A stretch of 64,000 bases of DNA, taken from the UHGV virus genome UHGV-1374396, one strand, 5' to 3'. Source of the stretch: a virus. The translations under genes and the position numbers were made by a program. This document shows positions 2,616 to 62,402 of this stretch, piece by piece. The notes beneath the pieces are model-generated. The model saw only the letters and a program-made list of their open reading frames with translations, searched no databases and was not told the DNA's origin. Positions within the stretch are counted from its first letter, which is position 1, and every line of letters starts with the position of its first letter.

Positions 2616-3338
2616 CTAATATGTTCTTTTATTTAATATATTATCTATCTTCTCCTGAGTAATATCTTCTTCTTTCTTATCTAGATAACTAGCATATAAT
2701 ACGTCTGGGTCATAGTTTTGATACACAGAGTATAATACATTATCAAATGGTAGAGATAGTTTCATAGTTCCATAATTTACTACCATTTCTAAACCTACCA
2801 ATCTATTTTTTAAATCTACAGAAGTAACTGTTGCTTCAACACCTTCATAAGGGTAACCCTTTAAATGAACGAATTGTCCTACCTTGAGATTTACTAAATC
2901 ATCTAAAGAATATTTCTTATTATCTTTAGCAATTCTGATAAACCTCTTTACATCGTTTTTAGGGCATAATGCAATTAGAGAGAAGTCATCGAAATCTTCT
3001 GCATTATCAACCCTTGCTTTCTTTTTCCTTGGATGTATAGTTACTGTATCTTTTACCCAGTGATGTATACCGGGTATAGTCTTCTTTAATTTGTTAAGAA
3101 ATGTACGATTATGAGCTAGTTGGATATCCATTTTCATAAACCCATAATTAAAAAGTACGGGCTCTTTAGAATATACCATCTTACCTTTATGTGTTTTTTT
3201 AAGCACATTTACCATTGGTATTATTGGTTTTACTCCTTTAATACCGGCTTCTTCCAGTTGAGATTTTATATTACTAAAATATTTCTTATCGAGGTAGAAT
3301 ATACAGTATACTTTCTTTCTAGAGCCTGACTTTTTCAT
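2616..3338 (-). CDS. NusG-like transcription antitermination factor paralog (NGN + KOW domains)
   Basis: N-terminal KKVYCIFY...LFNYGFMKM matches the NusG NGN pattern (WYvv...FPGYVfV). C-terminal LKVGQFVHLKGYPYEGVEATVTSVDLKNRLVGLEMVVNYGTMKLSLPF aligns with the NusG KOW segment [45 protein letters not shown]. Confidence 0.5.
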   Translation of the reverse strand: MKKSGSRKKVYCIFYLDKKYFSNIKSQLEEAGIKGVKPIIPMVNVLKKTHKGKMVYSKEPVLFNYGFMKMDIQLAHNRTFLNKLKKTIPGIHHWVKDTVTIHPRKKKARVDNAEDFDDFSLIALCPKNDVKRFIRIAKDNKKYSLDDLVNLKVGQFVHLKGYPYEGVEATVTSVDLKNRLVGLEMVVNYGTMKLSLPFDNVLYSVYQNYDPDVLYASYLDKKEEDITQEKIDNILNKRTY

Positions 3339-3339
3339 A

Positions 3340-3864
3340 TTATTTAACTAGTAATTTTGCTTGTTTGTGTATACTTTTGTAATTCACATACTTTTGTACA
3401 GCAGAAGCCATGTAGATACATAAGGTATTCTCTGGGGTCACTATAGTCATGCTTCTTTCTCCCTTACCTTGAAGCTGAGTTTCTATTACACTACCTAAAC
3501 TTTGGTCTACAACAAAGAAGAATTCACCTTTTGGCATTGAATTATATCTCATAACCAAGATAGGTACCTTAGATGATCTTTCTGCATCACGTTTTGCTTG
3601 TTCCCAGAATTTCTCTATTACTGAGCCTTTTGTACCTAATAGAGTATGTTCGAAGTTTATATCCTTATAATTCTTACACTCTATTGATAATTTACAACGA
3701 TGGGCGTGTTTCTCATCAGTACACATAACGTCTGAGGATAGGTCTTTACTTTTATGGTAAGCTCCCGAGTATGGGGTTCTTCCAAATGTAAAGCCAGACC
3801 AATCAGTAAAGTATTTTGCAACTGATCTTTCGAACCTTGAACCTTTATTTTTTGAGTTTGTCAT
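3340..3864 (-). CDS. Holliday-junction resolvase, archaeal Hjc-like PD-(D/E)xK nuclease
   Basis: KGSRFERSVAKYF...DVMCTDEK...LSIECKNYKD follows the Hjc pattern GSxxERELVKxL...D...E-x-K. Confidence 0.5.
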   Translation of the reverse strand: MTNSKNKGSRFERSVAKYFTDWSGFTFGRTPYSGAYHKSKDLSSDVMCTDEKHAHRCKLSIECKNYKDINFEHTLLGTKGSVIEKFWEQAKRDAERSSKVPILVMRYNSMPKGEFFFVVDQSLGSVIETQLQGKGERSMTIVTPENTLCIYMASAVQKYVNYKSIHKQAKLLVK

Positions 3865-3896: not shown

Positions 3897-5612
3897 TTAT
3901 AGTATTCTAAACCGGCTTATACCATTAATACGTTCAACTTGCAAGGTCTTAAAATTAGATAAAGGTAAGGAATCTTGGTGTGTAATAAGGAATAGATTTT
4001 TTCCTTCAAATACATTATCCAATAATGATATAACGATATCTATGTTATCGGTAGATAATGATTCGAATACTTCATCTAAGAAAGCTATGTTAATATCTTT
4101 CGAAGAAGTTAGTGTTTCGTTCATTGCTAATGCCATAGCCACATTACACAACTGTTGTTGACCTCCTGATAATTCCTCGTAGTCATAATATTCACCATCC
4201 ATTTCGATAGTAGTTACAAAATCCTTCTTTGTAGAATCTAAATCTACTTCGAAAGCAATTCTAAAACCTAATACTCTTGAATAAGCTTCTAGCGTATTAT
4301 TTAACCTACCTAATGAAGAATCGAATAAGTATGCCTTTATACCTTTATTACTTAGAGGGTCAGATATTAACCAATTATAATTGTCTAGCTCTAGCTTGTA
4401 TTTATCTAAACTACCTTTTACATTATCAATATCTGTGTGTAGTTTGTGAGCTTTCTTTTTGTACTTAGGTGATAGTATTTCTAACTTTTGGCCCTTTAAC
4501 TTCGATAACTTGGTATTTAACTCTTCAAGAGATTCTTCTAAATCTTCGATATCCGATTCAATAGAATTGAACTTTCTTAATTTCTCTTTTATATCTGAGA
4601 TATCATCCCTTACGGCTTCACGTTTATCGTTTAAGTCTTCGATACTTAGATACGCCCTCTTAATTTCTTTAACTAAAGCCAAAGCCTTTGATACCTTATT
4701 TGCTTCCAATAGGTCTACAACATGAGTTATAACTTCTATTAAAGGTTGGTTAGAAATTGTCTTTGCCTTACTTATATCATTATTTAAGCTTGAATACGTT
4801 TCGTTTAGTGTATTAAGCTTTTTCTCTAGAGTACTAACTTTCTTTTTATTATAAGTTAATCTTGTACTTTCTATATCTTTCTCTAGATTTTTCTTATGTT
4901 TTAAGAGTTTGCTCTTCTCTTCCTTTAATTCGGATTTGAAATTCTTTTCCCTACTTCTGAAATCTTTATAGGCTTCTCTGGCAGTATTATATTCATTCTC
5001 CAATGACCTAAGCTTTGAAGATAATTCGGAAACCTTACTAGATACTTTGTTCTTATATTGCTTAGCCAAGGTAGTAGCTACATTCAAATAATTGAGATTG
5101 AATACCTCTTCAAACAGTTTCTTCTTATCAGTATTTGATTCTTGTATCAATTTCTTCATACCTTGACCAAACATGATAGAATTCATAAATAGGTTATAGG
5201 TTAAACCAAGTTCATTATTTAAGAACTCCTGTAATTTAACCTTACCTTTGATATCTTGAGGTACAGCATCTTTTACTACCAAAAGTCTATCTTTACCTTT
5301 TGCACCATCTTCAAGTGTACCAGTATAGTTTTGACAACGTGTAACTTTATAGAATGAATTATCTCGTTGAAAGTATACCTCTACCAAAGTACCTTGATAG
5401 TCTTTTGTTTGGTACTTCTTCTTGGTATTTACATCTGAAGTACCCTTTATAGATTTACCGTATAAACACCATACCAAAGCAGAGAATATAGAACTCTTGC
5501 CTGCACCGTTACTTGCTCGTATTACTACCGATGTACCCTGATTAAGGTCTAAGGTATTATCACCCTCGTATGAACAAAATCCTTTTATTCTTAATCTTAT
5601 AAATGTTATCAT
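3897..5612 (-). CDS. SbcC/Rad50-like recombination ATPase (T4 gp46-like)
   Basis: N-terminal Walker A ASNGAGKSSIFSAL, a long central coiled coil, and C-terminal ABC signature LSGGQQQ plus Walker B AFLDEVF. Confidence 0.8.
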   Translation of the reverse strand: MITFIRLRIKGFCSYEGDNTLDLNQGTSVVIRASNGAGKSSIFSALVWCLYGKSIKGTSDVNTKKKYQTKDYQGTLVEVYFQRDNSFYKVTRCQNYTGTLEDGAKGKDRLLVVKDAVPQDIKGKVKLQEFLNNELGLTYNLFMNSIMFGQGMKKLIQESNTDKKKLFEEVFNLNYLNVATTLAKQYKNKVSSKVSELSSKLRSLENEYNTAREAYKDFRSREKNFKSELKEEKSKLLKHKKNLEKDIESTRLTYNKKKVSTLEKKLNTLNETYSSLNNDISKAKTISNQPLIEVITHVVDLLEANKVSKALALVKEIKRAYLSIEDLNDKREAVRDDISDIKEKLRKFNSIESDIEDLEESLEELNTKLSKLKGQKLEILSPKYKKKAHKLHTDIDNVKGSLDKYKLELDNYNWLISDPLSNKGIKAYLFDSSLGRLNNTLEAYSRVLGFRIAFEVDLDSTKKDFVTTIEMDGEYYDYEELSGGQQQLCNVAMALAMNETLTSSKDINIAFLDEVFESLSTDNIDIVISLLDNVFEGKNLFLITHQDSLPLSNFKTLQVERINGISRFRIL

Positions 5613-6616
5613 TGTTCTGATTCTTTTAGTATTTTTACCAATAAATCTTCCTTACACTTATCTTTAATACCTTGTTGTTTCATGTACCTATGTGCCAATC
5701 TTTTCTTTGAAAGTTGTTTAGTGATTTTATGGTTCACTACATCGGGTAAGTTTATCTTACTTGGTAGTACGGTGTAATAGTTACCATCATCCTTTACATC
5801 GGTATCTTTTTCTACATCTATGAACCTTGGATATTTAGCTAGATGTATAAACTTCATACTTAAATCTGTATATACCTCCCAATAACCCATATCACAATTC
5901 TTATCGGTTCGTCGTTGATGTAAGGGAGCTCCAATCATATAAACCTTTTTACCAAGCTTTTGAGGTTTGTGTATATGACCACATAGAACTAAATCAAACC
6001 TTGATAGAGTATTTAAGTTTAGATTCTCTACCGAATCTATTCTTCTATCATCGGTATCTTTTGCACCGGGATAATCAGTATGTAGTAATAGTATATGTTT
6101 ATAATCTGAGTTCAACCTTCTATTCTTAAGGTACTCAGATAAACCAGTATTATGATCTATGTAAGGTATACCGTGTACTTGAAACTCTTTGAACGGTCCA
6201 ATGTTCAATAGTGTATCTGGTTCTAGGACATTTAATACTGTGTTTTGGAATAAACTAATCCAACCTTTGGTGATATTACCTAATGTATTTACTTTCTTCA
6301 GGTCATGGTTACCCTCTATACAGTAAATACGTTGTCTTGGAAACTTATTAACTAAATCATCAAAGAAACTCTTAGCCATTAAGGCAAGTTCCTGGTCTAT
6401 GTTTTCTGGTTTATGAAACATATCTCCACAAAATAGAATAGGTACATCACCTCGTTTCTTAGATTCAGCACATAAAGTTTCTATTACATCAAAACCGTTT
6501 TTAGTTCTAGTTTTATTATCATTAAACTTTGCCCACAGGTTTAGGTGTAAATCAGAAAAGGCAAGGGCTAATAACTCCTTGCCTTCCTTTTTCTTGTTTT
6601 TCTTAAATCTTGTCAT
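5609..6616 (-). CDS. SbcD/Mre11-like nuclease (T4 gp47-like), calcineurin-type phosphoesterase
   Basis: Phosphoesterase motifs LAFSDLHL, GDMFH, GNHD, GHIH. Coupled by overlap to the SbcC-like gene. Confidence 0.8.
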   Translation of the reverse strand: MTRFKKNKKKEGKELLALAFSDLHLNLWAKFNDNKTRTKNGFDVIETLCAESKKRGDVPILFCGDMFHKPENIDQELALMAKSFFDDLVNKFPRQRIYCIEGNHDLKKVNTLGNITKGWISLFQNTVLNVLEPDTLLNIGPFKEFQVHGIPYIDHNTGLSEYLKNRRLNSDYKHILLLHTDYPGAKDTDDRRIDSVENLNLNTLSRFDLVLCGHIHKPQKLGKKVYMIGAPLHQRRTDKNCDMGYWEVYTDLSMKFIHLAKYPRFIDVEKDTDVKDDGNYYTVLPSKINLPDVVNHKITKQLSKKRLAHRYMKQQGIKDKCKEDLLVKILKESEQ

Positions 6617-7316
6617 TTACAAACAAGTTTATAATTTCAACTCTTTTATCTAGCTCTAACTCTTTAAGTATCAGTACTCGGGTATTACCATATATGTTGT
6701 TTATGATACCTACTTCTGCACCATAATCTAAAGATTGTTTAGATTTGAATATACTAACATTAGGCATATCTTCAATGCTTTGTTGTTTTACGTAACCAAA
6801 TCTTTCTAGAGCCATAAACATGATTTGAGAGATTGTCCACTGAAAGTACTGGTTTAATATTCTCTTATCATTATTCTCTATTACCCAATTCTGGAATGTT
6901 TCAAAGGTGAATGGTAAGAATATCAGATGAGTACAATGTTTTGCTAAACACTGTCTGCACATACTTATAAATTGTTCTATCTCGCATTGTGGTAGTACAC
7001 TAGCCTGTTTATATAAGAAATATGCAGCATTATCTACAAAACTTCTATCACTTACTACGTTAACCAAACCAGATTCTGCTGCTTCCTTAAAAGCTTTATT
7101 CCTTAGATTCAACAGTTGGTAATCCTGCAAAGCTAACTCTTTAGAATCATGAGATAACATATCTCCATGTTTCTCATCTTTTGTAAGAGGTAATAGGTCT
7201 GACATACTTCCAGATATGAATGTAAAACCGTTATCTACTAATTTGTTAGCTAGAGTAGTTTTACCACTACCACTAAACCCAAGGAACATTACGTTTGTAT
7301 TATTCATCTTTTCCAT
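6603..7316 (-). CDS. P-loop nucleotide kinase, candidate dNMP kinase
   Basis: N-terminal Walker A FLGFSGSGKTTLANKL. Size and context (nucleotide metabolism, T4 gp1 analogy) suggest a deoxynucleotide kinase. Confidence 0.45.
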   Translation of the reverse strand: MEKMNNTNVMFLGFSGSGKTTLANKLVDNGFTFISGSMSDLLPLTKDEKHGDMLSHDSKELALQDYQLLNLRNKAFKEAAESGLVNVVSDRSFVDNAAYFLYKQASVLPQCEIEQFISMCRQCLAKHCTHLIFLPFTFETFQNWVIENNDKRILNQYFQWTISQIMFMALERFGYVKQQSIEDMPNVSIFKSKQSLDYGAEVGIINNIYGNTRVLILKELELDKRVEIINLFVNDKI

Positions 7317-8271
7317 AACTACGAATTATTTGTTCTTCCCAATTTTGTAAAAACATTTTGTTTAAGAATGAGCTTATCGAGTTAGATACTGCAAATTCTT
7401 TGAATTTTAGCATTTTAAGCTTCTTACTCTTATAGGTCTTAACGGGTAAATCTTCTGGTTTTAGTGGATACTGATTAACAAACCATTTCAAATCGATAAG
7501 AGCTCTATTTCTATCACGTACCTCTAACATCTTTTTATGACCTTCATCACCTTTAAGGAATTCATCACCATCAAGGTAACTCTGAATTGAGCCAAATTGT
7601 TCAAGGAATATCTTTGCTTTCTTATCACCTATACCTGGGTACCCTGGGATGTCATCAGAAGAATCCCCTACCAAAGTTAGGTAGTCTACGGTATCTTTTG
7701 ACTTATAACCAAATAGAGCCTCACAATTAAGTTCCATAACAATCTGATCTTTACGCATATTGTAGATCTTTACTGTTTGGCCCCTCAGTAACTGGTTGAA
7801 ATCCTTATCTGATGTAACTAAGGTAATCTTAGATTTACGAGGTAAGTATTTTAAAGTTAGGTATGCTAAGAAATCATCTCCTTCATAATTGCATAATTTA
7901 TGCTTATCATAGATATACTTAATTCTTAGATATCTAAGAAGTTGCATAATCTGCTTTTTTTGATTCTGCAATGATTCATAATCAATTGATATATTCTTTC
8001 TATGTGCTTTATAGGTTGGTAATATATCTTTTCTGTACTTAGAATGACCATTGTCGAATACTATATACATATCATCAGGTTTAAACCTGTACATGTAGTG
8101 ATGTAGACTTTTAAAGAAACCAAATACTGCTCCTGTGGGAGTTCCATCTGGTGCAGTAAATCTGTTGAACTTATGGAAGCTCTGATGTAATAGACCTTCT
8201 CCATCTACTAAAAGGTAAGACAGCCTTTTATCTGCTGTCTTACTAATATTATTTTTACTCTTCGTTGCCAT
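7300..8271 (-). CDS. 5'-3' exonuclease / flap endonuclease (RNase H-like, FEN family)
   Basis: LVDGEGLLHQSF, VFDNGHSKYRKDILPTYKAHRK, VTSDKDFNQLL and the H3TH element IPGYPGIGDKKA match the FEN/5'-3' exonuclease family. Confidence 0.75.
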   Translation of the reverse strand: MATKSKNNISKTADKRLSYLLVDGEGLLHQSFHKFNRFTAPDGTPTGAVFGFFKSLHHYMYRFKPDDMYIVFDNGHSKYRKDILPTYKAHRKNISIDYESLQNQKKQIMQLLRYLRIKYIYDKHKLCNYEGDDFLAYLTLKYLPRKSKITLVTSDKDFNQLLRGQTVKIYNMRKDQIVMELNCEALFGYKSKDTVDYLTLVGDSSDDIPGYPGIGDKKAKIFLEQFGSIQSYLDGDEFLKGDEGHKKMLEVRDRNRALIDLKWFVNQYPLKPEDLPVKTYKSKKLKMLKFKEFAVSNSISSFLNKMFLQNWEEQIIRSYGKDE

Positions 8272-8473
8272 ATTCAGTTTCGATTAATCGATTGATATAC
8301 CACCTTGCTTTTAATAGGTCTTCTTTACCGTTCTTTTTACGATGTCTAGTTACATACTTAACAACGTTACCTTCAGAGAAATTGAGGTTATTTGCCTCAA
8401 TATAATCAATAGGCTCTATGCCTTGTTGAGCATAGTGTTCTGGGTGTGTTTTATTCATCTTCTTCTCCTTCAT
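8255..8473 (-). CDS. Small conserved phage protein, possibly DUF3310-like
   Basis: 72 aa containing HPEHY...IEPIDYIEANNLNFSEGNVVKYVTRHRKK..EDLLKARWYINRLIE. The family assignment is from memory only. Confidence 0.35.
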   Translation of the reverse strand: MKEKKMNKTHPEHYAQQGIEPIDYIEANNLNFSEGNVVKYVTRHRKKNGKEDLLKARWYINRLIETEYGNEE

Positions 8474-11302: not shown

Positions 11303-11511
11303 AGTGATTCAGTTGTTAAATTAGAACTTACACTATCAATGTGAGCTAATTCTCTTTCGCAGCAAGGGCATGTTACTACCCTCATATTTGACATAAGATG
11401 TCTACTGAAAATACTTTTAACGTCTGATATTTCATATTCAAACTCCGTATCACAGTAGTTACACTTAGCTCGATATTTAACTCTTTCTACTCCTCTTAAA
11501 ATCTTCTTCAT
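11299..11511 (-). CDS. Small zinc-ribbon protein
   Basis: CNYC...(x25)...CPCC cysteine pairs in 70 aa. Confidence 0.4.
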   Translation of the reverse strand: MKKILRGVERVKYRAKCNYCDTEFEYEISDVKSIFSRHLMSNMRVVTCPCCERELAHIDSVSSNLTTESL

Positions 11512-13843
11512 AGGATCTCATTTCTTTTTTATACAATTTACCGAATACCTCAGGAGAAGCAGCAGTAAAGTTACCAACCTTTTTAGATTTGAATGTGTGG
11601 TACTCTTTCATATACTCTTCTACACTGAAGTCAGGTTCTAATAGTTTATTATAGTCATAACCTGGTATGAAAGGTAATTCTTCTGCCATAGACCTACCTA
11701 TAGTAAAGTCCATTGACATAGCTACATCATCTACCTGGAAACCAAAATATTTCTTAGTACTTGGATTACGTAGGGTTTCCCATATACTGTGTACTGTCCA
11801 GGTATTTATATTCTCTGGTTTAGAATACATATATACGGCATCGTGTACTGTACAAGCTTCTTTCATCATAGGTAATTTACCTTGACGCATTCTCCAATAA
11901 AGCAATATAGCTCCAAAGTTAGTCATATTAGCAGCAGCCCCTTGACATGGAAAGTTAAGTCCAAGACGTATTGCATAAGCTACATCTGCATTACTATCAG
12001 AGTATATTTGAGGTAATCTTCTCCTAGTACCGAATAATTGTGTATAATAACCATACTTCTTAATAAGTTTCTCCTGTTTAGCCTTAAACTTCTTAATCTT
12101 AGGGTGATCTGCAAAGAATTCATCCATCTCTTTCTGAGCTTCTTCTTTGGTTACTATAATACCTGCCTTAGGATCTGATAGTTTTACAGCTAGTAAAGCA
12201 GAACCAATACCGTAGATAAGTCCGAAAGCAATTTGTTTTGCTCCCTTTCTTCGTATCTTCCAAAGTTTATGATCTGGGTGATTCTCATCATCGTGTGCTT
12301 TTGTTGCTTCTTCAATTGGTACTCCATATTTCTTTGCAGCAATTGAAAGGTGAGGGTCTACTCCATCTCTGAAAGCCTTAAGATAGGTTTCATCACCCGA
12401 TAAATGAGCCATCATTCTTAACTCTGCCTGTGAGTAGTCGAAGGCAATGTATAAATAACCTGGTGGAGCTACTAATTGTTTCTTTATATTAGGGTCTACA
12501 GAGGTTTTAGGTATTTGTTGCATATTTGGTTCAGAACTACTAAACCTATTAGAATCTGTTCCATGAATATTATATCTACCATGTAACCTATTATCATCCT
12601 GTACTTTTTCACTCCAACCTACTATGTATGTTTTATACATTTTCTCTAAACCCCTAAGTTCTAATAGGTTATCGAGGAATACGGCTTTATCGCATTCTGG
12701 GTCTTTATATTGAAGTCTTAACTTAACTAAACTTTCTTCATCAGTTGAAGGTGAACCAGATTCAGTTTCTTTTAGAGGTGTCATTTTAAAACCATGTTTA
12801 CTAAACATTAACTCAGGTAAGTCTTTCTTACTGTTAAGGTTTATTGGTCTTACTAATTCTCTCTCTGTTTTATTTGAATATATACCAGCTCTAACGTTGG
12901 ATATTTTTTGCTCCCTAGAAGCTATCTTTCTAGCATCTTTAGGATCATTATAATCTAAATCTTCTAATTCCCTTTCTATACTTTCTAGATATGCACTTAT
13001 ACGTTGTTTTATGTAATACTTTTGGAATTTCTTAACTACTGGTAATTCCATAATAGTATTATAGGCTTTATCTATTTTAGGCTTATATTCTGCTAATAAT
13101 TTTTTATTAAATTCAACATCAACGTATAGGCCTTCTTTCTCTACTGATGTAAGAACCCTTGAATTACACATAAACAGGTTTCTGAATACTGAATAAAAAC
13201 CTAAATCAATAAGTTTTTTCTCAAAGAATATCATTAAACGAAATGTATAGTCAGTATCCTGACAACCATATTTACATAAGCTCTTAAGTGGTTTCTTATC
13301 CCAAGGTAATTTATCAAAACCTTTATCTGATTCATAGTCTGCCGATTCAGGTAAGTATAATCTTACCATATCTTTAAGACCGTGTGGACGTTCCTCATTA
13401 AGTACATACTTAGCTAACATACCATCTAATAATGTACCTCTATAGTATATGCCGTACTTCTGATTTATCTGGTCATCGAATTTAGCATTCCAAGCAACCT
13501 TAGTAATTTCTGGGTTTTCTATTACCTCTCTACCAAAGTGTCTAAGTTCTTTTTTCCAGTTCCAGTTGTTACCACAGTACTTTTTAGTTTCAGGGTGGTC
13601 TAGAGGTATAGAACAACCAAATCCTGGCATGAAACTTACTGAAAGTATAGTAGGTTTAAAATCATTATAATATATACCTCTAGCATTAGTTTCATAGTCG
13701 ATACAGGCATAACCAGTCTTCTTACAAGATTCTATAAGAGTATCTAGTTCCTGTCTGTTTTTAATAATGTGATATCTTGTTCTTCTCATACTTGTTACAG
13801 TTAAAAAGGAGATACCGATAGTTATACCGATACCTCCAATCAA
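11477..13843 (-). CDS. DNA polymerase, family A (Pol I-like)
   Basis: Motif A DYSQAELRMMAH, motif B RRKGAKQIAFGLIYGIG, motif C VHDAVYMY. The N-terminal region is exonuclease-like. The true start may be the internal Met at 13789 (MRRTRYHII...). Confidence 0.85.
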   Translation of the reverse strand: MIGGIGITIGISFLTVTSMRRTRYHIIKNRQELDTLIESCKKTGYACIDYETNARGIYYNDFKPTILSVSFMPGFGCSIPLDHPETKKYCGNNWNWKKELRHFGREVIENPEITKVAWNAKFDDQINQKYGIYYRGTLLDGMLAKYVLNEERPHGLKDMVRLYLPESADYESDKGFDKLPWDKKPLKSLCKYGCQDTDYTFRLMIFFEKKLIDLGFYSVFRNLFMCNSRVLTSVEKEGLYVDVEFNKKLLAEYKPKIDKAYNTIMELPVVKKFQKYYIKQRISAYLESIERELEDLDYNDPKDARKIASREQKISNVRAGIYSNKTERELVRPINLNSKKDLPELMFSKHGFKMTPLKETESGSPSTDEESLVKLRLQYKDPECDKAVFLDNLLELRGLEKMYKTYIVGWSEKVQDDNRLHGRYNIHGTDSNRFSSSEPNMQQIPKTSVDPNIKKQLVAPPGYLYIAFDYSQAELRMMAHLSGDETYLKAFRDGVDPHLSIAAKKYGVPIEEATKAHDDENHPDHKLWKIRRKGAKQIAFGLIYGIGSALLAVKLSDPKAGIIVTKEEAQKEMDEFFADHPKIKKFKAKQEKLIKKYGYYTQLFGTRRRLPQIYSDSNADVAYAIRLGLNFPCQGAAANMTNFGAILLYWRMRQGKLPMMKEACTVHDAVYMYSKPENINTWTVHSIWETLRNPSTKKYFGFQVDDVAMSMDFTIGRSMAEELPFIPGYDYNKLLEPDFSVEEYMKEYHTFKSKKVGNFTAASPEVFGKLYKKEMRSYEEDFKRSRKS

Positions 13844-13853
13844 TCATCAATAA

Positions 13854-14612
13854 TTAAATTAACTCGTCTATCGAAGTTTTTAATAAATGCCAATCTCTCT
13901 TATAACAGTGTAGAGAATCAATTGTATGGAATAAGAAACCTGGTTTTACACCAACTTCTTTTGCTATGTATTCCATCATACACCATGCTAGATATACATC
14001 ATCTCCAAAGTGTCCAACAAAGTCAGAGCTACGTTGGTGATATACTAGATTCAATTGTTTACCATTACCCAAATCTCTGATAAGTAAATCGTAATACATT
14101 GAACAAGGTATACGAGCATCACCACAGTAATGTTTAGTATCACTACCTGTGAATATAGGTATAATTGCCTTACGAGTATCTGGGTCATTCTTTAGTAATT
14201 CAATAACCTCTTCGATAACTGTACCTGAATTCTCAGAATTACCGTTTTTACGATTAAACCTTTCAGCATAGGTATAGTCGAATTTCATACCTTGGTCAGT
14301 TTTTACTAAAAACTCTTTCCACATACCAGGATTAAGTTCCCAAGCATTACCAGGATTAAGTTCCTTACCAGATATTCTCTCTTGAAACTCTTTTCTTGCC
14401 CATTCAAATGTTTTTGTATAGATGAATAGGAATTCTGGGTCTGGTAACTCTGTAAGACAGTACTGTTTACAAATCTCTTCTTTAGTTACCATGTTATCAT
14501 CTTTAGAGATGTCTTTATTCTGGTAAGTTTTAGGTTTATTTAATAAACCCATTTCCCATAAGTCTCTGCCCATTTCAGACATTAACTCTCTTGTGTTACT
14601 GTATATTCTCAT
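13854..14612 (-). CDS. Thymidylate-synthase-family pyrimidine C5-modifying enzyme with Asp at the specificity position (dCMP hydroxymethylase- or methylase-like)
   Basis: LLKNDPDTRKAIIPIF vs E. coli ThyA LKNDPDSRRIIVSAW. Catalytic IPCSMYYD vs APCHAFFQ. LVYHQRSSDFVGHFGDDVYLAWCMM vs [25 protein letters not shown], so the Asn177-equivalent residue is Asp, as in T4 dCMP hydroxymethylase. Confidence 0.75.
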   Translation of the reverse strand: MRIYSNTRELMSEMGRDLWEMGLLNKPKTYQNKDISKDDNMVTKEEICKQYCLTELPDPEFLFIYTKTFEWARKEFQERISGKELNPGNAWELNPGMWKEFLVKTDQGMKFDYTYAERFNRKNGNSENSGTVIEEVIELLKNDPDTRKAIIPIFTGSDTKHYCGDARIPCSMYYDLLIRDLGNGKQLNLVYHQRSSDFVGHFGDDVYLAWCMMEYIAKEVGVKPGFLFHTIDSLHCYKRDWHLLKTSIDELI

Positions 14613-14650
14613 ATTCTTATTATTTGTATTTTATATAATAAAGTTAATCA

Positions 14651-15571
14651 CTATGCTTTATGAGCTGATTTTCTTTTAAGAAGCTTCCTTTTATAGGATT
14701 TACGCTGAGAGAATGTGATACAACTTTCTGGGTATTCAATTGTATCATCTCCCAAGTTTAAATCTTTTGCTAACAAGGGTTTATATTCATACAGGTCTGG
14801 ACGTATCACCTTAAATGCTCTTAGATATACTTTAAACTTAGAGAACTCTTCAGGAGTACCGTCCATGAATTTATTATATACCTCTTTTACTCTCTTGTAC
14901 CAAGAAGATTTTTTATCATAACCTTTGAAAATATCTTTGAAAGGTTTATGAGCTACGTACATTAAGAGAGTTTCTACGTTACCATACATCTGTGTAGCAA
15001 ATACGTTTATTTGTACTGCCTGGTCTTTACCATATACATATTCTGCCATACGTTGAACCAGTAAGAAGTCGAATATAAGTCTCTTTGTAATTTCTGAAGC
15101 TCTAAGAACTACAGTTACTACTGGTATATCCTCCTGAAACCTTTTACTAAAGGTAGCTGCTAGAAGGCACTGTTTACCATTATTATGTGAATTATTAAAT
15201 AGGTAGCTTATATTATAATTCTGATTATAGGTTGTCTTCTTTACATTAAGCTGAGATTTAATCAAATCTAGTTGATTAAAGTCTATGTAATTGTTTAATA
15301 ATACTGTCCACTTAGCTTCAGTATAATTAAAGTGACGACCATAATCGAATTCAGGGTCTATCCAAGCTCTACGTATTTTTATAAATACATTATAGCATAC
15401 TGCTACTCCTGCATTTGCCACTGCTCCCTTTGAGAACAATAGAGGGTCTAAAGTTAGAAAACCCTCATTTAACTTTTCCCATGCCTCTTGTGAAGTAGCA
15501 AATTCCACGGCATGACAAGTTTCTTCTGAGTTTAACTTTAGACCTTCAAGGGGCTTATTCCAACCACCCAT
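14651..15571 (-). CDS. Hypothetical protein; possibly a highly diverged TS-fold paralog
   Basis: Weak, by-eye correspondence to ThyA core elements: QCLLAATF ~ PCHAFFQF, VVLRASE ~ LYQRSCD, IFDFLLVQRMA ~ [12 protein letters not shown]. Not reliable without profile search. Confidence 0.3.
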   Translation of the reverse strand: MGGWNKPLEGLKLNSEETCHAVEFATSQEAWEKLNEGFLTLDPLLFSKGAVANAGVAVCYNVFIKIRRAWIDPEFDYGRHFNYTEAKWTVLLNNYIDFNQLDLIKSQLNVKKTTYNQNYNISYLFNNSHNNGKQCLLAATFSKRFQEDIPVVTVVLRASEITKRLIFDFLLVQRMAEYVYGKDQAVQINVFATQMYGNVETLLMYVAHKPFKDIFKGYDKKSSWYKRVKEVYNKFMDGTPEEFSKFKVYLRAFKVIRPDLYEYKPLLAKDLNLGDDTIEYPESCITFSQRKSYKRKLLKRKSAHKA

Positions 15572-15697
15572 ATTACGAATTAGATTTTCTTAGGGCCTTA
15601 GCAGCCTGTTGTTCTTTACGCATAAGTTCTTCTAACTCTCTAGCTTCTGCTTTTCTTTTCTGTACTTTACCGAAATTCTTTTTCATATGTGTATATT

Positions 15698-16570
15698 TTA
15701 ATAATTACTGGCCTGTCTGAAACAATTTACCTTATGTTTCTTAAAGAAGAGTACATAAAAGGTTTCTGGTGTAAAACCCATAACACTTAAGTAACCGCAG
15801 TAAGCAATGAAAGCTCTTACTATCTGTTCCTGGTAACGTAAACCATCAGTTAATTCTTGAGTTTGTTTCCAAGTCTTATTCTTTAAGAAGTTTCTACCTA
15901 TGTTAAGATGATAGCATACTTTCCATAGCATATTATCTTCTTTTGAATGCAGTTCACGAGTTATACTTCTGAATCCAGGGATATAACTTAGTACATGTTC
16001 TACATCTTTGTTGTGGTCAACTAGTAATTGTTCAGTTACTAAGTTAAACAGTTGAAGTTTAGGTTCTACATAACCTTCAGTCTGTAATATAAAGTGTCCA
16101 AAACCAAATAAACCATTTAGATTATCTACTGAATGGTCTGTACCTTTTAGTATACGTTGGTTGATGTATTCATATATATCCTCTGGACCGATATTAGCAT
16201 ATATGAATAACTCTGTAAAGAAAGCAAAGGCATCTGCTTGTTCTTCGTTTGAGTTCTGCAAATGATTTATTACCATCTCGAACTGATCATGGGTTAATAG
16301 GTCCATATTCCAACCTACTGATTCAGCTATTCTGATAGCTTCTTCTGTTGATTCATAACCTTCTGCAGTCTCTTCTATAACTCTTGCAGAGAAATCTTTA
16401 AGTACCAACTGACCTTGTTCTGAGTTTATACTTATGGGGTACATTGGTAGATTCTTTTCAATCTTGCCAATGTAACCTTCCATAAGTCTCTTCTGTAACT
16501 CAAAAATCTTTTCTAAGAATAGGCCATCCTTTACCTCTTCGGGTGTTTCTTTTATTGTACGTATGTCCAT
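15698..16570 (-). CDS. Putative all-alpha NTP pyrophosphatase (MazG or dCTPase/dimeric-dUTPase-like)
   Basis: Acidic helical segments VIEETAEGYESTEEAIRIAE and EEQADAFAFFTELFIYANIG resemble the MazG EExxE / EELGD helices. Lies between the TS-like and dUTPase-family genes. Confidence 0.3.
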   Translation of the reverse strand: MDIRTIKETPEEVKDGLFLEKIFELQKRLMEGYIGKIEKNLPMYPISINSEQGQLVLKDFSARVIEETAEGYESTEEAIRIAESVGWNMDLLTHDQFEMVINHLQNSNEEQADAFAFFTELFIYANIGPEDIYEYINQRILKGTDHSVDNLNGLFGFGHFILQTEGYVEPKLQLFNLVTEQLLVDHNKDVEHVLSYIPGFRSITRELHSKEDNMLWKVCYHLNIGRNFLKNKTWKQTQELTDGLRYQEQIVRAFIAYCGYLSVMGFTPETFYVLFFKKHKVNCFRQASNY

Positions 16571-17136
16571 TACTTTTTAGGTTTATTATTACCAGATCCC
16601 ATACCTTTATCACCTCTTGTTCCCCAGTTCTTAGCTTCTTTATCGAACTCTTCCTGAGTAATCTCTTCTGGTTCAGTTAAATAAATTGGTGTATGAATCA
16701 ACTGTACCAAAGCTTCTCCAGCTTTTAGTTGAACTGGTCTGCATGATGTATTATATACACATAGGTTATATTCTCCAGTATAAGGTGAATCACCTACTTG
16801 AGCAGTGAATATTAAACCTTGTTTAGAACTTCTACCTGATTTATTTGCTACTATCAGAGCTGAATTAATAGGCTCTGCCAATATTCTAATACCACTTGGT
16901 AGATTGATTCTTGTGTTTGGTCCAAGGAAGATATCAGTAACATTACCTTCATTGTAAGCTAGACTTACTGTGTTTTCTGTATTTGCTACTTCTGATATTT
17001 CTAAATGAGGGTTACTCAATGCAATATCAGACAGTTTAAAATCCTCTGGTATGTAGAAATCCAAACCAGCATCACCAACATTATTTCTTGTTGGTTCATG
17101 TACTTTACGTACTTTTACGAATCTAATTCTTTCCAT
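16570..17136 (-). CDS. dUTPase / dCTP deaminase family protein
   Basis: Motifs NVGDAGLDFY (AGxDL), VANKSGRSSKQGLI (RSS), QVGDSPYTGEY (GxIDxDYRGE-like). Confidence 0.7.
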   Translation of the reverse strand: MERIRFVKVRKVHEPTRNNVGDAGLDFYIPEDFKLSDIALSNPHLEISEVANTENTVSLAYNEGNVTDIFLGPNTRINLPSGIRILAEPINSALIVANKSGRSSKQGLIFTAQVGDSPYTGEYNLCVYNTSCRPVQLKAGEALVQLIHTPIYLTEPEEITQEEFDKEAKNWGTRGDKGMGSGNNKPKK

Positions 17137-17401
17137 GTTGTAAACTTTTTATGTTTGAAAAATTATGAACTTTATCTATAAGGTCTCCATAGGTAATACC
17201 ATCATGGTATGTAAATTTCAAATCGAATACAGTCTTATCCAATTCATCATTTATACTTTTTATGATATGAACCATATCTTTCTTATTACCTATGATATCT
17301 TCTAATTTGCATTCTCTACCAACCCATTGATTTGGGTTGTTCATATACCTTGAAAGTATTCGTGTTATTATAGGGATAACAATTTCTGTAACTTTGTACA
17401 T
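17123..17401 (-). CDS. Hypothetical protein
   Basis: 92-aa ORF, colinear and overlapping its neighbours. Confidence 0.35.
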   Translation of the reverse strand: MYKVTEIVIPIITRILSRYMNNPNQWVGRECKLEDIIGNKKDMVHIIKSINDELDKTVFDLKFTYHDGITYGDLIDKVHNFSNIKSLQHGKN

Positions 17402-17781
17402 CAGCTTATCTCCTTATATATTTTACGTATTATCTTAGTTGGTACTTCAAACTTATTACTAGCTTTGCTTATACACTCTTTACGTGTATACCCTTTTCTT
17501 TTATATATTCGTAAGTATTTTTTAATACCTGTTACATCTTCTAATACGTCTAAATCCTTATACTGATTTTCTTCTTCTAACTCTTTACGAGTTTTATTAA
17601 GTAGTTGGCTCATTCTGTAAGCACATAATTCAGAATCACCACATAACTTACACTCTTTAGTACTTAAGTCATATGCTTTACCAAAGCAAGGGTCTCCATT
17701 ACCACCTATTGATGTTAGGTCTATAGGTACTAATGGGTCATGACTACTTAAATCTGGTAATTGTTTTTGTTTCTTTGCCAT
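17401..17781 (-). CDS. Hypothetical Cys-containing protein
   Basis: 126-aa ORF with CFGKAYDLSTKECKLCGDSELC. Confidence 0.35.
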   Translation of the reverse strand: MAKKQKQLPDLSSHDPLVPIDLTSIGGNGDPCFGKAYDLSTKECKLCGDSELCAYRMSQLLNKTRKELEEENQYKDLDVLEDVTGIKKYLRIYKRKGYTRKECISKASNKFEVPTKIIRKIYKEIS

Positions 17782-17823: not shown

Positions 17824-19656
17824 CTAGTACTCCTTAACTGTAAGACCTAATTTCTTAGCTTTCAGCATTTTACTTGAGGTAGAGTTTATGTCTCCAGTAA
17901 ATATAATCTTGGCTTCACTAAAAGACGAGGTTTCCTTATATTCGGGATTAGCTTTTAAAAACTCAGCTTTAGTTTTATATTGTTTTGGACTACCAGTAAG
18001 TATACATAAAGTTTGATTTGATTCCTCTAGATGAAAATCTTCTATGCCCTTGTGCATTGATTTTAGTAACTTATTTAATTTTCTAAATTCTTTGGAATCC
18101 TTTGATAAAACCCATTCGGTTTTATAATTAGGTAGTTTACCCTCTCCGGTAAGTATTATACGTTCTAATATATTGCATACCTTTGGTCCGTGTGAATCAA
18201 GGCACATAGTTTGTATTATCTTAGCAAGAGTAATATCCTGGAGTATCTTCTTGAATTCAGTGTATATTTTCTTACCTAATAAAGTAGGTATAGCTCTTTT
18301 TATAACCTTAGGTTTTACTCTAAGTATATTTGAGACAACTTTGCCATTCTCTTTTAGGTATTCATATAATTGTTCTGATAATGCAGGACCTAACCCTGGT
18401 ACAGATAGTATATCACATGAATTTAAGAATTTATTCTTTATACCTTGGTCTTTTGATAGTACAGCATAAGCATGACAATCTTTAACTGTAAATTCTCTTT
18501 TTGGTAGAGGTAGATTCTCTCCAAAGGTTTTTACCTTATAAATAAAAGGTATAATATCTCCAGCTAATGAGATAACTATCTTTGAACCTATTCCAATGAC
18601 CTTATCTACTAAGAAACCATAGTTATGACCTGATACATTGGTTATAGTTTTACCATCAAGTACTACTGGTTTTACCTGCAGTGTTGGGTAGTATTCTCCA
18701 GTTTTACCAAGATTCCAGTTTATATTAACTACCGTAGTCTCGGCTACCATTGGTTCAAACTTGATAGCTATACAATCTGAAGGATATTCTGTTGGTACCT
18801 TATCTCTATGATTTGAACTTGGTTTTATTACGAACCCATCTAATGGGAATTTATACTCAGACCTGAAGTTTGATAGAGTGTAGTATACTTCCTTGAACGA
18901 AGATTTTAATAGTCCATCAGAGAAGATAAATGTTGCTGGATAAGGTATACCAGTTTTACCTACCCTAGATACTACATCTTTATCATCTAAGTCAACTAAG
19001 GTATTATCTTTGATGTATCTGTAATCATAAATAACGTACTCAAGGTCAGAAGCTTTCTTGAATTCTACTTCGTTAGAATCATCATAATCAGAGTTTACCA
19101 TACCCGATACGAAAGACCTTGGGTTCTTAAACTCCTCTGAGTATTTCTTTTCGAAGGTATCTTTACTTATTAATACCTCTCCTCTGAGAATAAAGCATTC
19201 ATAGTCTTTAAACGCATTAAAGTCAATTGGTTGTTTGATTAGCATAGTTCTCATCAAACTATAAATATCTTTTCCCCAATTACCATCACCTCGAGTTGAT
19301 ACCGAGAAGAGTTTTCCGTACTTTACTACCATTTCAAAAGAACACCCATCATACTTGGGTGTAACAATTACTGAGTGTTTCTTAATTACGTCTGGTAATT
19401 GTTTATACAGATCACCCCAATCTGATGTTTTATGTACCTGTATCTTATTTAATGAGCCCATAATAAATGGGTGAGGTACAGTATAATTATTACTGGTAGA
19501 AGGTGCACCAATCAATCTATTTTCCATGCCTAGCTTTTTCTCTAGAGCATCGAATTCAATATCGGGCATTATCTCTTCTCCATTATAGTAAGCTTCTCTG
19601 GCCTTTATATATAATTTAAGGTCTTTCTTTAAGTTTGACTTTGTCATAATATCCAC
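17824..19656 (-). CDS. NAD-dependent DNA ligase (LigA-like)
   Basis: N-terminal Ia-domain-like YYNGEEIMPDIEFDALEKKL, adenylation motif KYDGCSFEM (KxDG). Length 610 aa. Confidence 0.65.
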   Translation of the reverse strand: MDIMTKSNLKKDLKLYIKAREAYYNGEEIMPDIEFDALEKKLGMENRLIGAPSTSNNYTVPHPFIMGSLNKIQVHKTSDWGDLYKQLPDVIKKHSVIVTPKYDGCSFEMVVKYGKLFSVSTRGDGNWGKDIYSLMRTMLIKQPIDFNAFKDYECFILRGEVLISKDTFEKKYSEEFKNPRSFVSGMVNSDYDDSNEVEFKKASDLEYVIYDYRYIKDNTLVDLDDKDVVSRVGKTGIPYPATFIFSDGLLKSSFKEVYYTLSNFRSEYKFPLDGFVIKPSSNHRDKVPTEYPSDCIAIKFEPMVAETTVVNINWNLGKTGEYYPTLQVKPVVLDGKTITNVSGHNYGFLVDKVIGIGSKIVISLAGDIIPFIYKVKTFGENLPLPKREFTVKDCHAYAVLSKDQGIKNKFLNSCDILSVPGLGPALSEQLYEYLKENGKVVSNILRVKPKVIKRAIPTLLGKKIYTEFKKILQDITLAKIIQTMCLDSHGPKVCNILERIILTGEGKLPNYKTEWVLSKDSKEFRKLNKLLKSMHKGIEDFHLEESNQTLCILTGSPKQYKTKAEFLKANPEYKETSSFSEAKIIFTGDINSTSSKMLKAKKLGLTVKEY

Positions 19657-20146
19657 AGTTTATTAATTCATGACAACCATTACGGTATAAACAATCAGGT
19701 ACCATAACCTTAGCAACATGAGGGTCTACTAATTTTATGGCTTTCTTTAATAGATGAGTGAACTTTCTTGTTTCTGGTGAAGCATGAAAGCAAAGTCTCT
19801 TCCTACCTATAAAGATTAGAGCTTGAGCATTAATTAGGAAGCTCAGATTAACTGGGTCTGTTTGTCTACGTTCTTCTCGTTTAACTCCAGTACGGTCTTC
19901 TCTTGAGGTACCTACAAACCATTCAACCCCTAACTTATGTCTTACTAAGTGATTCTGAACATAATAAGGGATTCCTTCACATTGTACTAGAAAGGTTAAT
20001 GCTCTAATAGGAGAATGTTCTGCCTGGAGCATTTTATCTTTCCATACATCTGCAACTGTATTAGTTACTACTTTCTTGTTAACTGTTTGCAATGCAAGCT
20101 CTTTAACTACATCCCAACCAATTAACTGTCTAGCTGTTATTTTCAT
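19616..20146 (-). CDS. ThyX-fold (flavin-dependent thymidylate synthase-like) protein with a divergent signature
   Basis: EHSPIRALTFLVQCEGIPYYVQNHLVRHKLGVEWFVGTSRED aligns with ThyX [39 protein letters not shown]. RHR is replaced by RHK, the Ser of RHRxxS by Gly/Val, and SGRY by TSRE. Only 176 aa. Confidence 0.4.
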   Translation of the reverse strand: MKITARQLIGWDVVKELALQTVNKKVVTNTVADVWKDKMLQAEHSPIRALTFLVQCEGIPYYVQNHLVRHKLGVEWFVGTSREDRTGVKREERRQTDPVNLSFLINAQALIFIGRKRLCFHASPETRKFTHLLKKAIKLVDPHVAKVMVPDCLYRNGCHELINCGYYDKVKLKERP

Positions 20147-61370: not shown

Positions 61371-62402
61371 CTAACGATTAAGGCAATTGATGAACCATAA
61401 ACCCACTTCGTACACAGAGCCCTTTGCTAAGGCATACCTTGCCTTATTGAGGTAGTAATTGTAATTCGATGTATTCATGTAAACCTTAAACTCATTCGGA
61501 AAGCCCATTATGTTTTTGAAGTCCTTAATCCCAATAGGCCAACCATCAGGTCTAAATTGCCTATCTGCAGGTCTTAAGGTTAATGGAGCCTTATCCCATT
61601 CCAATCTGTAAACTCCAGGTAATGTTGACATCTTAGCTGTTTTGATTGGCCACTTCTTTTCATGTTTGAAATCATTAACCCAAAGGTCATGTATCTGACC
61701 TACACTGAGATTAATCTTCTTTGGGAGTTTACGGTAGTCATACATTGCAAGTACTTTATCTGACTTCGGTATCCAGTTACAGGACTCATTGATGTTAGAA
61801 CATAAGTCTAAGTCCATAACTAGAGGTTCTAATACACCTTTGGTATCTTTCAAACTATTAACTTTAAACAACGTATCAAATTTGTTCAACAGCTTTGCTT
61901 TCTTCTTAAGCACTCCAACTATTACTAAACGTTTTCTAGATAGTTGAGAATTACCAAACTCGGATACTGAACAACAATGATAGATTAGTTTATACTCAGG
62001 TAATGATTCTTCAAAGTAAGTCTTAGGTAGTAGACTTAATAATCTGGGTAGATTCTCTAAAAGAAACATCTTAGGTTTGAAATGATTGATAGCTTCTAAT
62101 ACTAGATTCAAACTCTTATTCTTCTCGGGTTTACCAAGTTGTTTAACCTTTGAAAGTCTCATAATAGAAGATGCTCCACAGTCTGGAGAACTAACTATTA
62201 CATCAACTTTCTTATCAATCACATCTTCTAAGTTTCTTGTAAACAATGAACTACCAAAGTTACCTTTCCATTGTTCTTCTTTCTTAGTATGAAATACTGC
62301 TCTTGGTTCTACGTTACCAATGATATTATGTTTAGCCAGTTTCCAAGGGAATAATAAAGCTCCCTGACCAGCTGATACACCTAAAACGTTATACTTTCTC
62401 AT
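61371..62402 (-). CDS. DNA (cytosine-5) methyltransferase homolog with atypical motifs I and IV
   Basis: Aligns with M.HhaI across the catalytic domain: VLGVSAGQGALLF (motif I FAGLGGF), NFG, DVIVSSPDCGASS (motif IV DILCAGFPCQAFS), KPKMFLLENLPRL (motif VI KPKVVFMENVKNF), C-terminal IMGFPNEFKV (motif IX MGYPDSYKV). Pro-Cys is replaced by Asp-Cys. Confidence 0.6.
   Translation of the reverse strand: MRKYNVLGVSAGQGALLFPWKLAKHNIIGNVEPRAVFHTKKEEQWKGNFGSSLFTRNLEDVIDKKVDVIVSSPDCGASSIMRLSKVKQLGKPEKNKSLNLVLEAINHFKPKMFLLENLPRLLSLLPKTYFEESLPEYKLIYHCCSVSEFGNSQLSRKRLVIVGVLKKKAKLLNKFDTLFKVNSLKDTKGVLEPLVMDLDLCSNINESCNWIPKSDKVLAMYDYRKLPKKINLSVGQIHDLWVNDFKHEKKWPIKTAKMSTLPGVYRLEWDKAPLTLRPADRQFRPDGWPIGIKDFKNIMGFPNEFKVYMNTSNYNYYLNKARYALAKGSVYEVGLWFINCLNR

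Follow-up and report, generated by a model that had tools for sequence, protein, structure and literature searches.

Homologs of thymidylate synthase (TS) with Asp in place of Asn177 (numbering of Escherichia coli ThyA) are established as the enzymes with which cytosine modification of phage DNA begins. How the DNA responds to restriction enzymes, to CRISPR and to sequencing chemistries depends on such modifications. The exchange N177D marks deoxycytidine monophosphate (dCMP) as the substrate (PMC13326640; PMC8670742), and genes of enzymes carrying it, here named TS(Asp), are over-represented among metagenomic contigs with modified cytosine (PMC8670742). The residue at position L143 tracks the product: a bulky hydrophobic residue, which excludes water, goes with a methyl group and Asp or Glu with a hydroxymethyl group, while D169N is the mark of flavin-dependent 5-hydroxy-dCMP synthases (PMC13326640). 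Neighbourhoods consisting of TS(Asp), PRA-PH/MazG and DNA polymerase I (PolA) genes mark XP12-type phages with 5-methylcytosine (5mC), and five of seven tested TS(Asp) enzymes made 5-methyl-dCMP (bioRxiv 10.1101/2024.12.05.627091). Here we analyzed a gene block in a 64,000-nucleotide stretch of a gut phage genome (UHGV-1374396), this whole stretch being referred to as the window. The block encodes a TS(Asp) enzyme of 252 amino acids (aa), a 306-aa protein here named the partner, a 290-aa pyrophosphatase-like protein and a 188-aa dUTPase-family protein.

With a probability of about 0.6, we read this block as a pre-replicative dCMP-modification module working at the mononucleotide level, with an enzyme set unlike those of T4 and XP12. 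The logic of the T4 and XP12 pathways is already established, and so is the use of TS homologs with Asp177 to mark cytosine modification. What differs here is the signature R143/S147/H173/D177 of the TS(Asp) enzyme, the obligate presence of a TS-fold partner, sometimes as two paralogs, and the accompanying genes, one of the trimeric dUTPase family and, in the window genome, one of a DNA C5-methylase homolog under selection.

The locus resembles the T4 pathway (gp42, gp56 and gp1) in the Asp at the position of T4 D179, in a C-terminal motif shared by the all-alpha pyrophosphatase-like protein and gp56, and in its mononucleotide-level logic beside replication genes. In contrast to gp42, to which it is ~21-22% identical, the window enzyme carries Arg and not Asp or Glu at L143. 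The window also differs from T4 by the additional partner, the trimeric dUTPase-family gene and the DNA C5-methylase homolog; no glucosyltransferase was found in it, and for its P-loop protein no homology to known kinases of deoxynucleoside monophosphates (dNMP) was detected in the PDB beyond the P-loop. A first-pass annotation, made from the letters of this DNA alone, had described the gene set as matching T4 only in part, and this was supported.

With the XP12-type modules the window shares TS(Asp) and PolA lying close to a candidate pyrophosphatase of the MazG superfamily, and actinophage versions of the block (phages Zuko and Shrew) carry a dCMP-deaminase gene as well. Unlike these modules, the window contains the partner and Arg instead of a hydrophobic residue at L143, and no Zn deaminase was found in it. 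The 5-hydroxy-dCMP synthases (RB69 gp48, DLP3 gp80 and HY126 AfhB) are likewise short TS-fold proteins with Asp177, and they act on dCMP, but the window enzyme is without D169N and no arabinose or glycosyl-transfer genes were found. The CMP 5-hydroxymethylase MilA (5b6d/5jnh), the second-best match in sequence and structure, has the TS fold and specificity for cytosine nucleotides. It differs by Asp at L143, a ribonucleotide substrate and its place in an antibiotic pathway.

Membership of the 252-aa protein in the TS family, as assumed in the first-pass annotation, was confirmed by Pfam PF00303 Thymidylat_synt (E 9.3e-16, 58.2 bits with a cut-off of 24.3) and by PHROG 160 'thymidylate synthase' (1.3e-29). 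The peptides quoted there for the comparison with ThyA (LLKNDPDTRKAII, PCS, HQRSSDF and HFGDDVYLAW) are all present in the translation, and the four open reading frames (ORFs) of the block as well as the P-loop ORF exist where it had placed them, all on the minus strand. Asp205, the second D of HFGDDVY, stands opposite the N of PFNLASY in Caenorhabditis elegans TS (4iqb) according to phmmer. In a MAFFT alignment it falls into one column with D179 of T4 gp42 and N177 of E. coli ThyA, a position at which the SP8 deoxyuridine monophosphate (dUMP) hydroxymethylase keeps Asn. The placement was unchanged in a second MAFFT set to which canonical phage ThyA had been added. The three alignments agree on the predicted Asp and none puts Asn there; moreover, Asp was invariant in 120/120 listed close homologs.

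In ThyA numbering, Cys170 of the 252-aa protein corresponds to C146, Arg194 to R166, Asp197 to D169 and Asp205 to N177, while Arg167 is found at the position of L143, Ser171 at H147 and His201 at G173. The residues C170, R194 and S195 (C146 and Arg166/Ser167 of ThyA) are invariant in the alignments, the equivalents of Asp169, Tyr94, His207 and Tyr209 are conserved, and those of Glu58, Trp80, Tyr94, Arg166 and Asp169 are kept in the window protein. The motif RIPCS was present in 117 of the 120 homologs. The protein ends 15 residues past the H-x-Y motif, so that the C-terminal segment of ThyA is missing. Because it has kept its catalytic and folate residues, this enzyme is predicted most likely to transfer a one-carbon unit from folate to C5. 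A canonical, dUMP-methylating ThyA was rejected as an identity, given Asp and not Asn at 177 in all 120 homologs and NCBIfam ThyA equivalog scores far under the cut-offs (e.g. 43 versus 327 bits). According to MetaGPA, the H147 position, here Ser, is the second most modification-associated one.

At the L143 position Arg ('ARIPC') was found in 117/120 homologs and likewise in the phages Muddy, CPD4, Zuko and Shrew, and at the D169 position Asp ('RSSDF') was kept in 118/120. Judged against the signatures in PMC13326640, the 252-aa protein shows neither an acidic residue of T4 gp42 type nor a hydrophobic one of XP12 type at L143, and the D169N exchange of the 5-hydroxy-dCMP synthases is absent as well. 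Because of the Arg at 143 and the retained Asp at 169, the product class of TS(Asp) cannot be assigned by comparing its residues with published signatures. Hydroxymethyl- or methylcytosine or a further derivative had been named as the product earlier; of this, the cytosine signature Asp177 stands, and a fit to the methyl, hydroxymethyl or hydroxy signature does not. The combination R143/H173/D177 is common to the TS proteins of the window, Muddy, CPD4, Zuko and Shrew, and by the Asp177 rule the enzymes of the cultured phages should act on dCMP.

The best sequence matches of the 252-aa protein in the PDB were 9iqu/9iqc, the dCMP hydroxylase of phage HY126 (3e-7), followed by MilA 5b6d (1.8e-6). 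The former match would fit a route to 5-hydroxycytosine (5hoC), with TS(Asp), the partner or both acting as flavin-dependent hydroxylases of dCMP in the manner of RB69 gp48 and HY126 AfhB. However, the D169N signature of such enzymes (PMC13326640) is replaced by the conserved Asp in TS(Asp) and by Glu in the partner, and neither glycosyltransferase nor NDP-sugar or arabinose genes were detected in the window. We therefore regard 5-hydroxylation as improbable.

The 306-aa partner, left as an unknown protein in the first-pass annotation, was identified as a second TS-fold protein and as the most conserved member of the block. It gave no match in Pfam or NCBIfam at E <= 0.1 and no sequence match in the PDB. 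A HMMER search of the full library retrieved 139 cluster representatives of its family, down to ~20% identity, and in an alignment of 68 sequences the residues Y83, K87, W88, L91, Y95, C135, R157, R164 and D168 were invariant. On the level of sequence, the relationship to TS was detected solely by comparing the partner profile with the TS alignment (77% probability, E 2.1e-5). Here C135, R157, E160 and D168 align with C146, R166, D169 and N177 of ThyA. The structural similarity of the partner to TS-family structures is well over that to other folds, and the closest solved structures are the same for the partner and for the 252-aa protein, namely HY126 9iqu/9iqc and then MilA 5b6d/5jnh. The 306-aa protein is thus a highly divergent TS-fold protein with a Cys/Arg/Asp triad of its own, a triad which survives in the homologs of Muddy and Zuko. 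The invariance of these three residues in the partners of gut phages, Clostridium phages and actinophages argues for catalysis or at least for nucleotide binding.

The partner was not recognised before. It has no Pfam family, which makes it invisible to domain-based surveys, and it is listed as a 'hypothetical protein' in cultured phages. Our literature search returned no paper on the partner or on the DNA chemistry of any carrier (Muddy, CPD4-like and GTE2-like phages).

To describe the distribution of the block, 80 IMG/VR loci with relatives of the 252-aa protein were retrieved via the TS-like alignment and searched with the window proteins. In all 80 the partner gene lies directly upstream of the TS(Asp) gene and PolA downstream of it. 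The genes of the 290-aa and 188-aa proteins are found further upstream in 77 loci; the remaining three are contigs ending there. The order dUTPase, pyrophosphatase, partner, TS(Asp) and PolA is therefore kept in 77-80 of the 80 loci, and the block of TS enzyme, pyrophosphatase-like and dUTPase-family proteins that had been delimited from the window alone proved to be conserved and to adjoin PolA. Within the main clade of ~85 kb, identity was highest for the partner (~70%), followed by the TS-like protein (~58%), the dUTPase-family protein (~50%) and the pyrophosphatase (~39%).

The block was found in cultured phages as well (Muddy gp44-48, Zuko gp73-78, Shrew gp72-79 and CPD4 gp74-79), all of them with PolA adjacency. 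In the Clostridium perfringens phage CPD4 a partner homolog, gp74 (hhalign 99%), lies directly upstream of TS(Asp) gp75. The mycobacteriophage Muddy has the order dUTPase gp48, partner gp47 (hhalign 92%), TS(Asp) gp46, gp45 and PolA gp44. Homologs of gp47 were present in 85 actinophage records, and in most of those listed a 'thymidylate synthase' is annotated next to them. In Streptomyces phage Zuko and Curtobacterium phage Shrew the order is kinase (thymidylate or adenylate kinase), MazG/dUTPase, partner, TS with R143/H173/D177, dCMP deaminase and PolA. We rejected the partner as a simple stand-in for the missing Zn deaminase, since both of these phages carry the two together. By tblastn the partner was detected in records of gut phages, Clostridium phages and actinophages and in none beyond these. 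The pair of partner and TS(Asp) is present in thousands of gut-metagenome sequences, with single homolog clusters of up to ~7,900 members.

A sub-clade of the gut phages carries two partner paralogs per cluster, of ~330 aa and ~250 aa, the longer one extended at its C-terminus by a Cys-containing stretch and bearing an acidic tail (L026:2667-5397, L027:4944-7921, L041/L042:5162-7783, L043, L049, L034 and L007). The two paralogs enclose the gene of a canonical ThyA (Pfam 6.6e-89; Asn177 and Leu143 present) in loci L026 and L027 and that of a canonical ThyX (1.6e-47) in L041 and L042, with a DUF3310 gene also between the paralogs. ThyA and ThyX thus substitute for each other at one locus. The DUF3310 gene of the relatives lies inside the TS cluster, in the interval from ThyA or ThyX to the second partner paralog (L042:6820-7059; L027:6931-7173). 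As a genuine ThyA or ThyX coexists with them in the same cluster, TS(Asp) and its partners would do something else; this argues that TS(Asp) is not a synthase of thymidylate (dTMP).

These clusters also bear on another explanation, namely that the block supplies thymidylate and the DNA is canonical. TS(Asp) would then make 5-methyl-dCMP, and a second activity, that of the partner in the gut phages and of the Zn deaminase in the actinophages, would deaminate it to dTMP or dTTP, turning the deoxycytidine pool into deoxythymidine for an AT-rich genome. The window genome has 33% GC, and in Zuko and Shrew the dCMP-deaminase gene adjoins that of TS(Asp). Covalent addition of Cys at C6, as it occurs in C5-methyltransferases, is generally known to promote deamination at C4. 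Publications refer to the operon only as 'thymine synthesis', in Gordonia CT-cluster phages (PMC10353413), and XP12-type phages deaminate 5-methyl-dCTP to dTTP (bioRxiv 10.1101/2024.12.05.627091). The latter chemistry, however, accompanies full replacement by 5mC where it has been documented (same source). Further, relatives that hold ThyA or ThyX beside TS(Asp) and two partners would have no need of another route to dTMP, and co-occurrence of the partner with the Zn deaminase in Zuko and Shrew speaks against the division of labour described. We consider thymidylate supply unlikely, even though the selected C5-methylase homolog and the avoidance of GATC described below would fit unmodified cytosines.

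For the other proteins of the block the assignments differ in strength. The 290-aa protein matched Pfam dUTPase_2 (PF08761) just over the cut-off and only with its C-terminal 65 residues (7.6e-5, 23.5 bits, cut-off 22.9), as well as the nucleotide-pyrophosphohydrolase families 12184 (2e-16) and 173 (1.4e-7) of PHROG. Its family has the invariant motifs E66-E67-x-x-E70 and E109-E110-x-x-D113. With hhalign, the C-terminal K..N.FRQ..Y was matched to the C-terminal end of T4 gp56 (E 7.8e-5); the same motif gave a non-significant E of 0.1 against the Campylobacter jejuni dUTPase 1w2y, and the hhalign match to the MazG-like gp74 of Zuko was confined to the last 29 residues. An AlphaFold2 model was all-helical and confident (predicted local distance difference test score 91), and a Foldseek search of the PDB with it gave no match under E 0.1. 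From its motifs, the protein is a plausible candidate for a dCTPase/dUTPase of the dimeric-dUTPase/T4 gp56/MazG superfamily. The MazG-like, gp56-type role proposed before is supported in its sequence motifs and finds no backing from Foldseek despite the confident model.

By its sequence the 188-aa protein probably belongs to the trimeric dUTPase family (Pfam PF00692 at 1.6e-11, 44.5 bits with a cut-off of 22; PDB dUTPases from 2.4e-7). Its NCBIfam dut score (1.4e-11, 44 bits) is under the equivalog cut-off of 103. By eye, motifs I, III and V are canonical, with Arg to Lys in motif II and Arg to Ala in motif IV. The double designation dUTPase/dCTP-deaminase homolog can be reduced to its first half: a dCTP deaminase was rejected, as motifs III and V are of dUTPase type and the DCD score of 22.9 is under the cut-off of 27. 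Inspected by eye, the protein is also without what we take to be the catalytic Glu of the deaminase E. coli Dcd.

The 237-aa P-loop protein matched Pfam AAA_28 (2.3e-8), weakly dNK (0.0049), and PHROG 761 'thymidylate kinase' (1.2e-5). Against the PDB nothing beyond the Walker A motif was found and no homology to known dNMP kinases was detected; no homolog was found among cultured phages. In 32/80 loci its gene was found at most 8 kb away from that of the TS enzyme, a figure bounded by the flank length. By analogy, and with the kinase genes that head the module in Zuko and Shrew, it is a weak candidate for a kinase of the modified dNMP with a putative gp1-like role. The gp1 role assigned in the first-pass annotation comes down to a Walker A motif and weak kinase-family matches.

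Two genes of NTP-pyrophosphatase type in one block, together with the weak kinase assignment, would also suit a module that acts on the nucleotide pool and leaves the DNA unaltered. It would deplete dCTP and dCMP or counter nucleotide-based defences of the host, with a non-catalytic or regulatory partner. In the hhalign alignment the partner is without equivalents of the R126/R127 loop of ThyA, which points the same way, and the signs of unmodified cytosines (C5-methylase homolog and GATC avoidance) would apply here too. On the other side stand the Cys, Arg and Asp of the partner, invariant across the gut-phage, Clostridium-phage and actinophage versions, and the adjacency of PolA in every one of the 80 loci, which fits a supply of precursors for replication. 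A role restricted to the pool has little probability in our view.

For the dCMP-modification module that we favour, the following pathway can be proposed. The 290-aa and/or the 188-aa enzyme would hydrolyse dCTP and dUTP to the monophosphates, and the hydrolysis of dCTP would both feed dCMP into the pathway and cut the competing dCTP. Cys170 of the 252-aa enzyme would attack C6 of dCMP, with Asp205 selecting cytosine, and a one-carbon substituent would be added at C5, most likely from methylene-tetrahydrofolate. The partner may form a hetero-oligomer with the TS-like enzyme or may catalyse a second step, with either the same nucleotide or its modified form as the substrate. The phage P-loop kinase and a host nucleoside diphosphate kinase would raise the product to the triphosphate, and the adjacent PolA, the presumed consumer, would incorporate it. 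The product would be some C5-substituted deoxycytidine, and its replacement of deoxycytidine in virion DNA may be partial.

Several results weigh against the modification module, above all if every cytosine is to be substituted. The window carries a C5-cytosine DNA methylase homolog (PF00145 at 6e-12) with the motifs S-P-D-C-G (motif IV, unusual compared with P-C-Q), E-N-L (VI) and Q-x-x-R-x-R (VIII). It adjoins an N-acetylmuramidase gene (62399-62995) and has counterparts with 62-98% identity in four related IMG/VR genomes. Across these four relatives the pairwise ratio of non-synonymous to synonymous substitution (dN/dS) was 0.07-0.15 and the catalytic motifs were invariant, so the homolog is evidently maintained by selection. 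A C5 methylase requires cytosines with a free C5, which is hard to reconcile with full substitution at C5. In addition, GATC occurs 52 times versus 202 expected from a second-order Markov model (z = -10.6), a four-fold depletion, and GCGC and CGCG occur once each (50059 and 10930) versus ~51 expected by composition. The observed/expected ratio was 0.50 for CpG, 0.13 for GCG and 0.20 for CGC, and GGCC and CCGG were near expectation. These values suggest that restriction or methylation still exerts pressure on sites containing C; the oligonucleotide biases may reflect restriction avoidance, decay driven by methylation or codon bias. Avoidance as strong as this would be expected for accessible sites and not for DNA in which a protective group covers every cytosine, although a modified cytosine as such is compatible with these findings. 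The lack of fit of TS(Asp) to any validated product signature, the pyrophosphatase assignment, marginal in Pfam and without Foldseek support, and the weak kinase assignment count on the same side.

So does the lack of any detected tailoring enzyme. Pfam scans of the window took in ORFs of at least 120 aa, many of which match no Pfam family, and within this scope no glycosyltransferase or other tailoring enzyme and no Zn-dependent dCMP deaminase was found. This agrees with the first reading of the window, in which neither a dCMP deaminase nor a glycosyltransferase had been seen. The same reading had expected a fully substituted 5-modified cytosine. Given the selected methylase homolog and the avoidance of sites, above all GATC, the odds are now against every cytosine being substituted in this way, at roughly one chance in three.

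A more specific version of the modification reading concerns the product itself. It is possible, and here we are tentative, that the partner branch and the Arg143/His173/Asp177 subfamily of TS lead to a cytosine derivative other than 5mC, 5-hydroxymethylcytosine or 5hoC. They would then mark an undescribed DNA modification in abundant human-gut phages of ~75-88 kb, in C. perfringens phages and in actinophages including Muddy. In any case this TS(Asp) subfamily is always paired with a TS-fold partner, and its product is not predictable from current signatures. The pair is present in cultured, tractable phages (Muddy, the Gordonia CT-cluster and CPD4), where it is annotated as 'thymidylate synthase', 'hypothetical protein' or 'thymine synthesis'. 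Knowing which base the carriers contain, a new one or one already described, would be of consequence for phage therapy, Muddy being a therapeutic phage, and for the interpretation of gut viromes.

The window as a whole has a GC content of about 33% (31-38%), and nearly all of its genes are on the minus strand (Table 1). In record MT121960 the region corresponding to PolA carries the annotation 'DNA polymerase 1'. Further genes of the window for replication and recombination encode Rad50/Mre11-like, 5'-3' exonuclease, RecA/UvsX-like and gp32-like single-stranded DNA-binding proteins, an NAD-dependent ligase, and DnaB-type and Toprim proteins. Structural genes are of myovirus type (gp19 tail tube, gp25, baseplate J and tape measure). 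The nearest deposited DNA is the uncultured 'Phage DP SC_6_H4_2017' with ~68% identity across a third of a 7-kb query, and identical or near-identical proteins were found on metagenomic contigs of 75-88 kb. The module order in the candidate family 'Flandersviridae' is similar to that of the window.

Table 1. Genes of the block and other features of the window discussed in the text
Feature	Size (aa)	Position	Strand	Evidence or remark
P-loop NTPase/nucleoside monophosphate kinase-like protein	237	6603-7316	-	AAA_28, weak kinase-family matches
DUF3310 protein	72-80	8255-8473	-	near RecA-like gene
DNA polymerase I (PolA)		11477-13843	-	directly downstream of module
TS-family enzyme TS(Asp)	252	13854-14612	-	PF00303, Asp205
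TS-fold partner	306	14651-15571	-	profile-profile and structural similarity
All-alpha NTP-pyrophosphatase-like protein	290	15698-16570	-	marginal dUTPase_2, PHROG, motifs
Trimeric dUTPase-family protein	188	16570-17136	-	PF00692
Cys-rich ORF (CFGK...C..C....C)	126	17401-17781	-	only PHROG 13400 (unknown function)
Possible divergent ThyX-like protein	176	19616-20146	-	sub-threshold Thy1
C5-cytosine DNA methylase homolog	343	61371-62402	-	PF00145

The Cys-rich ORF lies just upstream of the dUTPase-family gene. Since it is kept in 74/80 related loci, at 47-100% identity, it may be part of the same block.

A further ORF of the window, of 176 aa, reached 3.6e-5 and 24.1 bits with Pfam Thy1, under the cut-off of 24.8 and over residues 25-74 only. 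In BLASTP against canonical phage ThyX the match was limited to 11 residues around the R-H-(R/K) motif. No PDB match was found, and ThyX identity could not be confirmed. The ORF overlaps the end of the ligase gene and has homologs in 11/80 related loci within the 8-kb flank.

At locus L049 an HNH/NUMOD3 homing-endonuclease-like gene (5306-6001) is located between the pyrophosphatase and partner genes, and in other loci the PolA matches are split or shifted over 1-2 kb, suggesting that more mobile elements have inserted near the module. The cultured Bacteroides fragilis phage BF486P3 offers a further case of TS-fold genes in a pair, with two separate TS homologs (2889-3650 and 5722-6402), both with Asp at 177 and annotated as deoxycytidylate 5-hydroxymethyltransferase. 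A dUTPase gene lies between them, and the two proteins are unrelated in sequence to the partner family.

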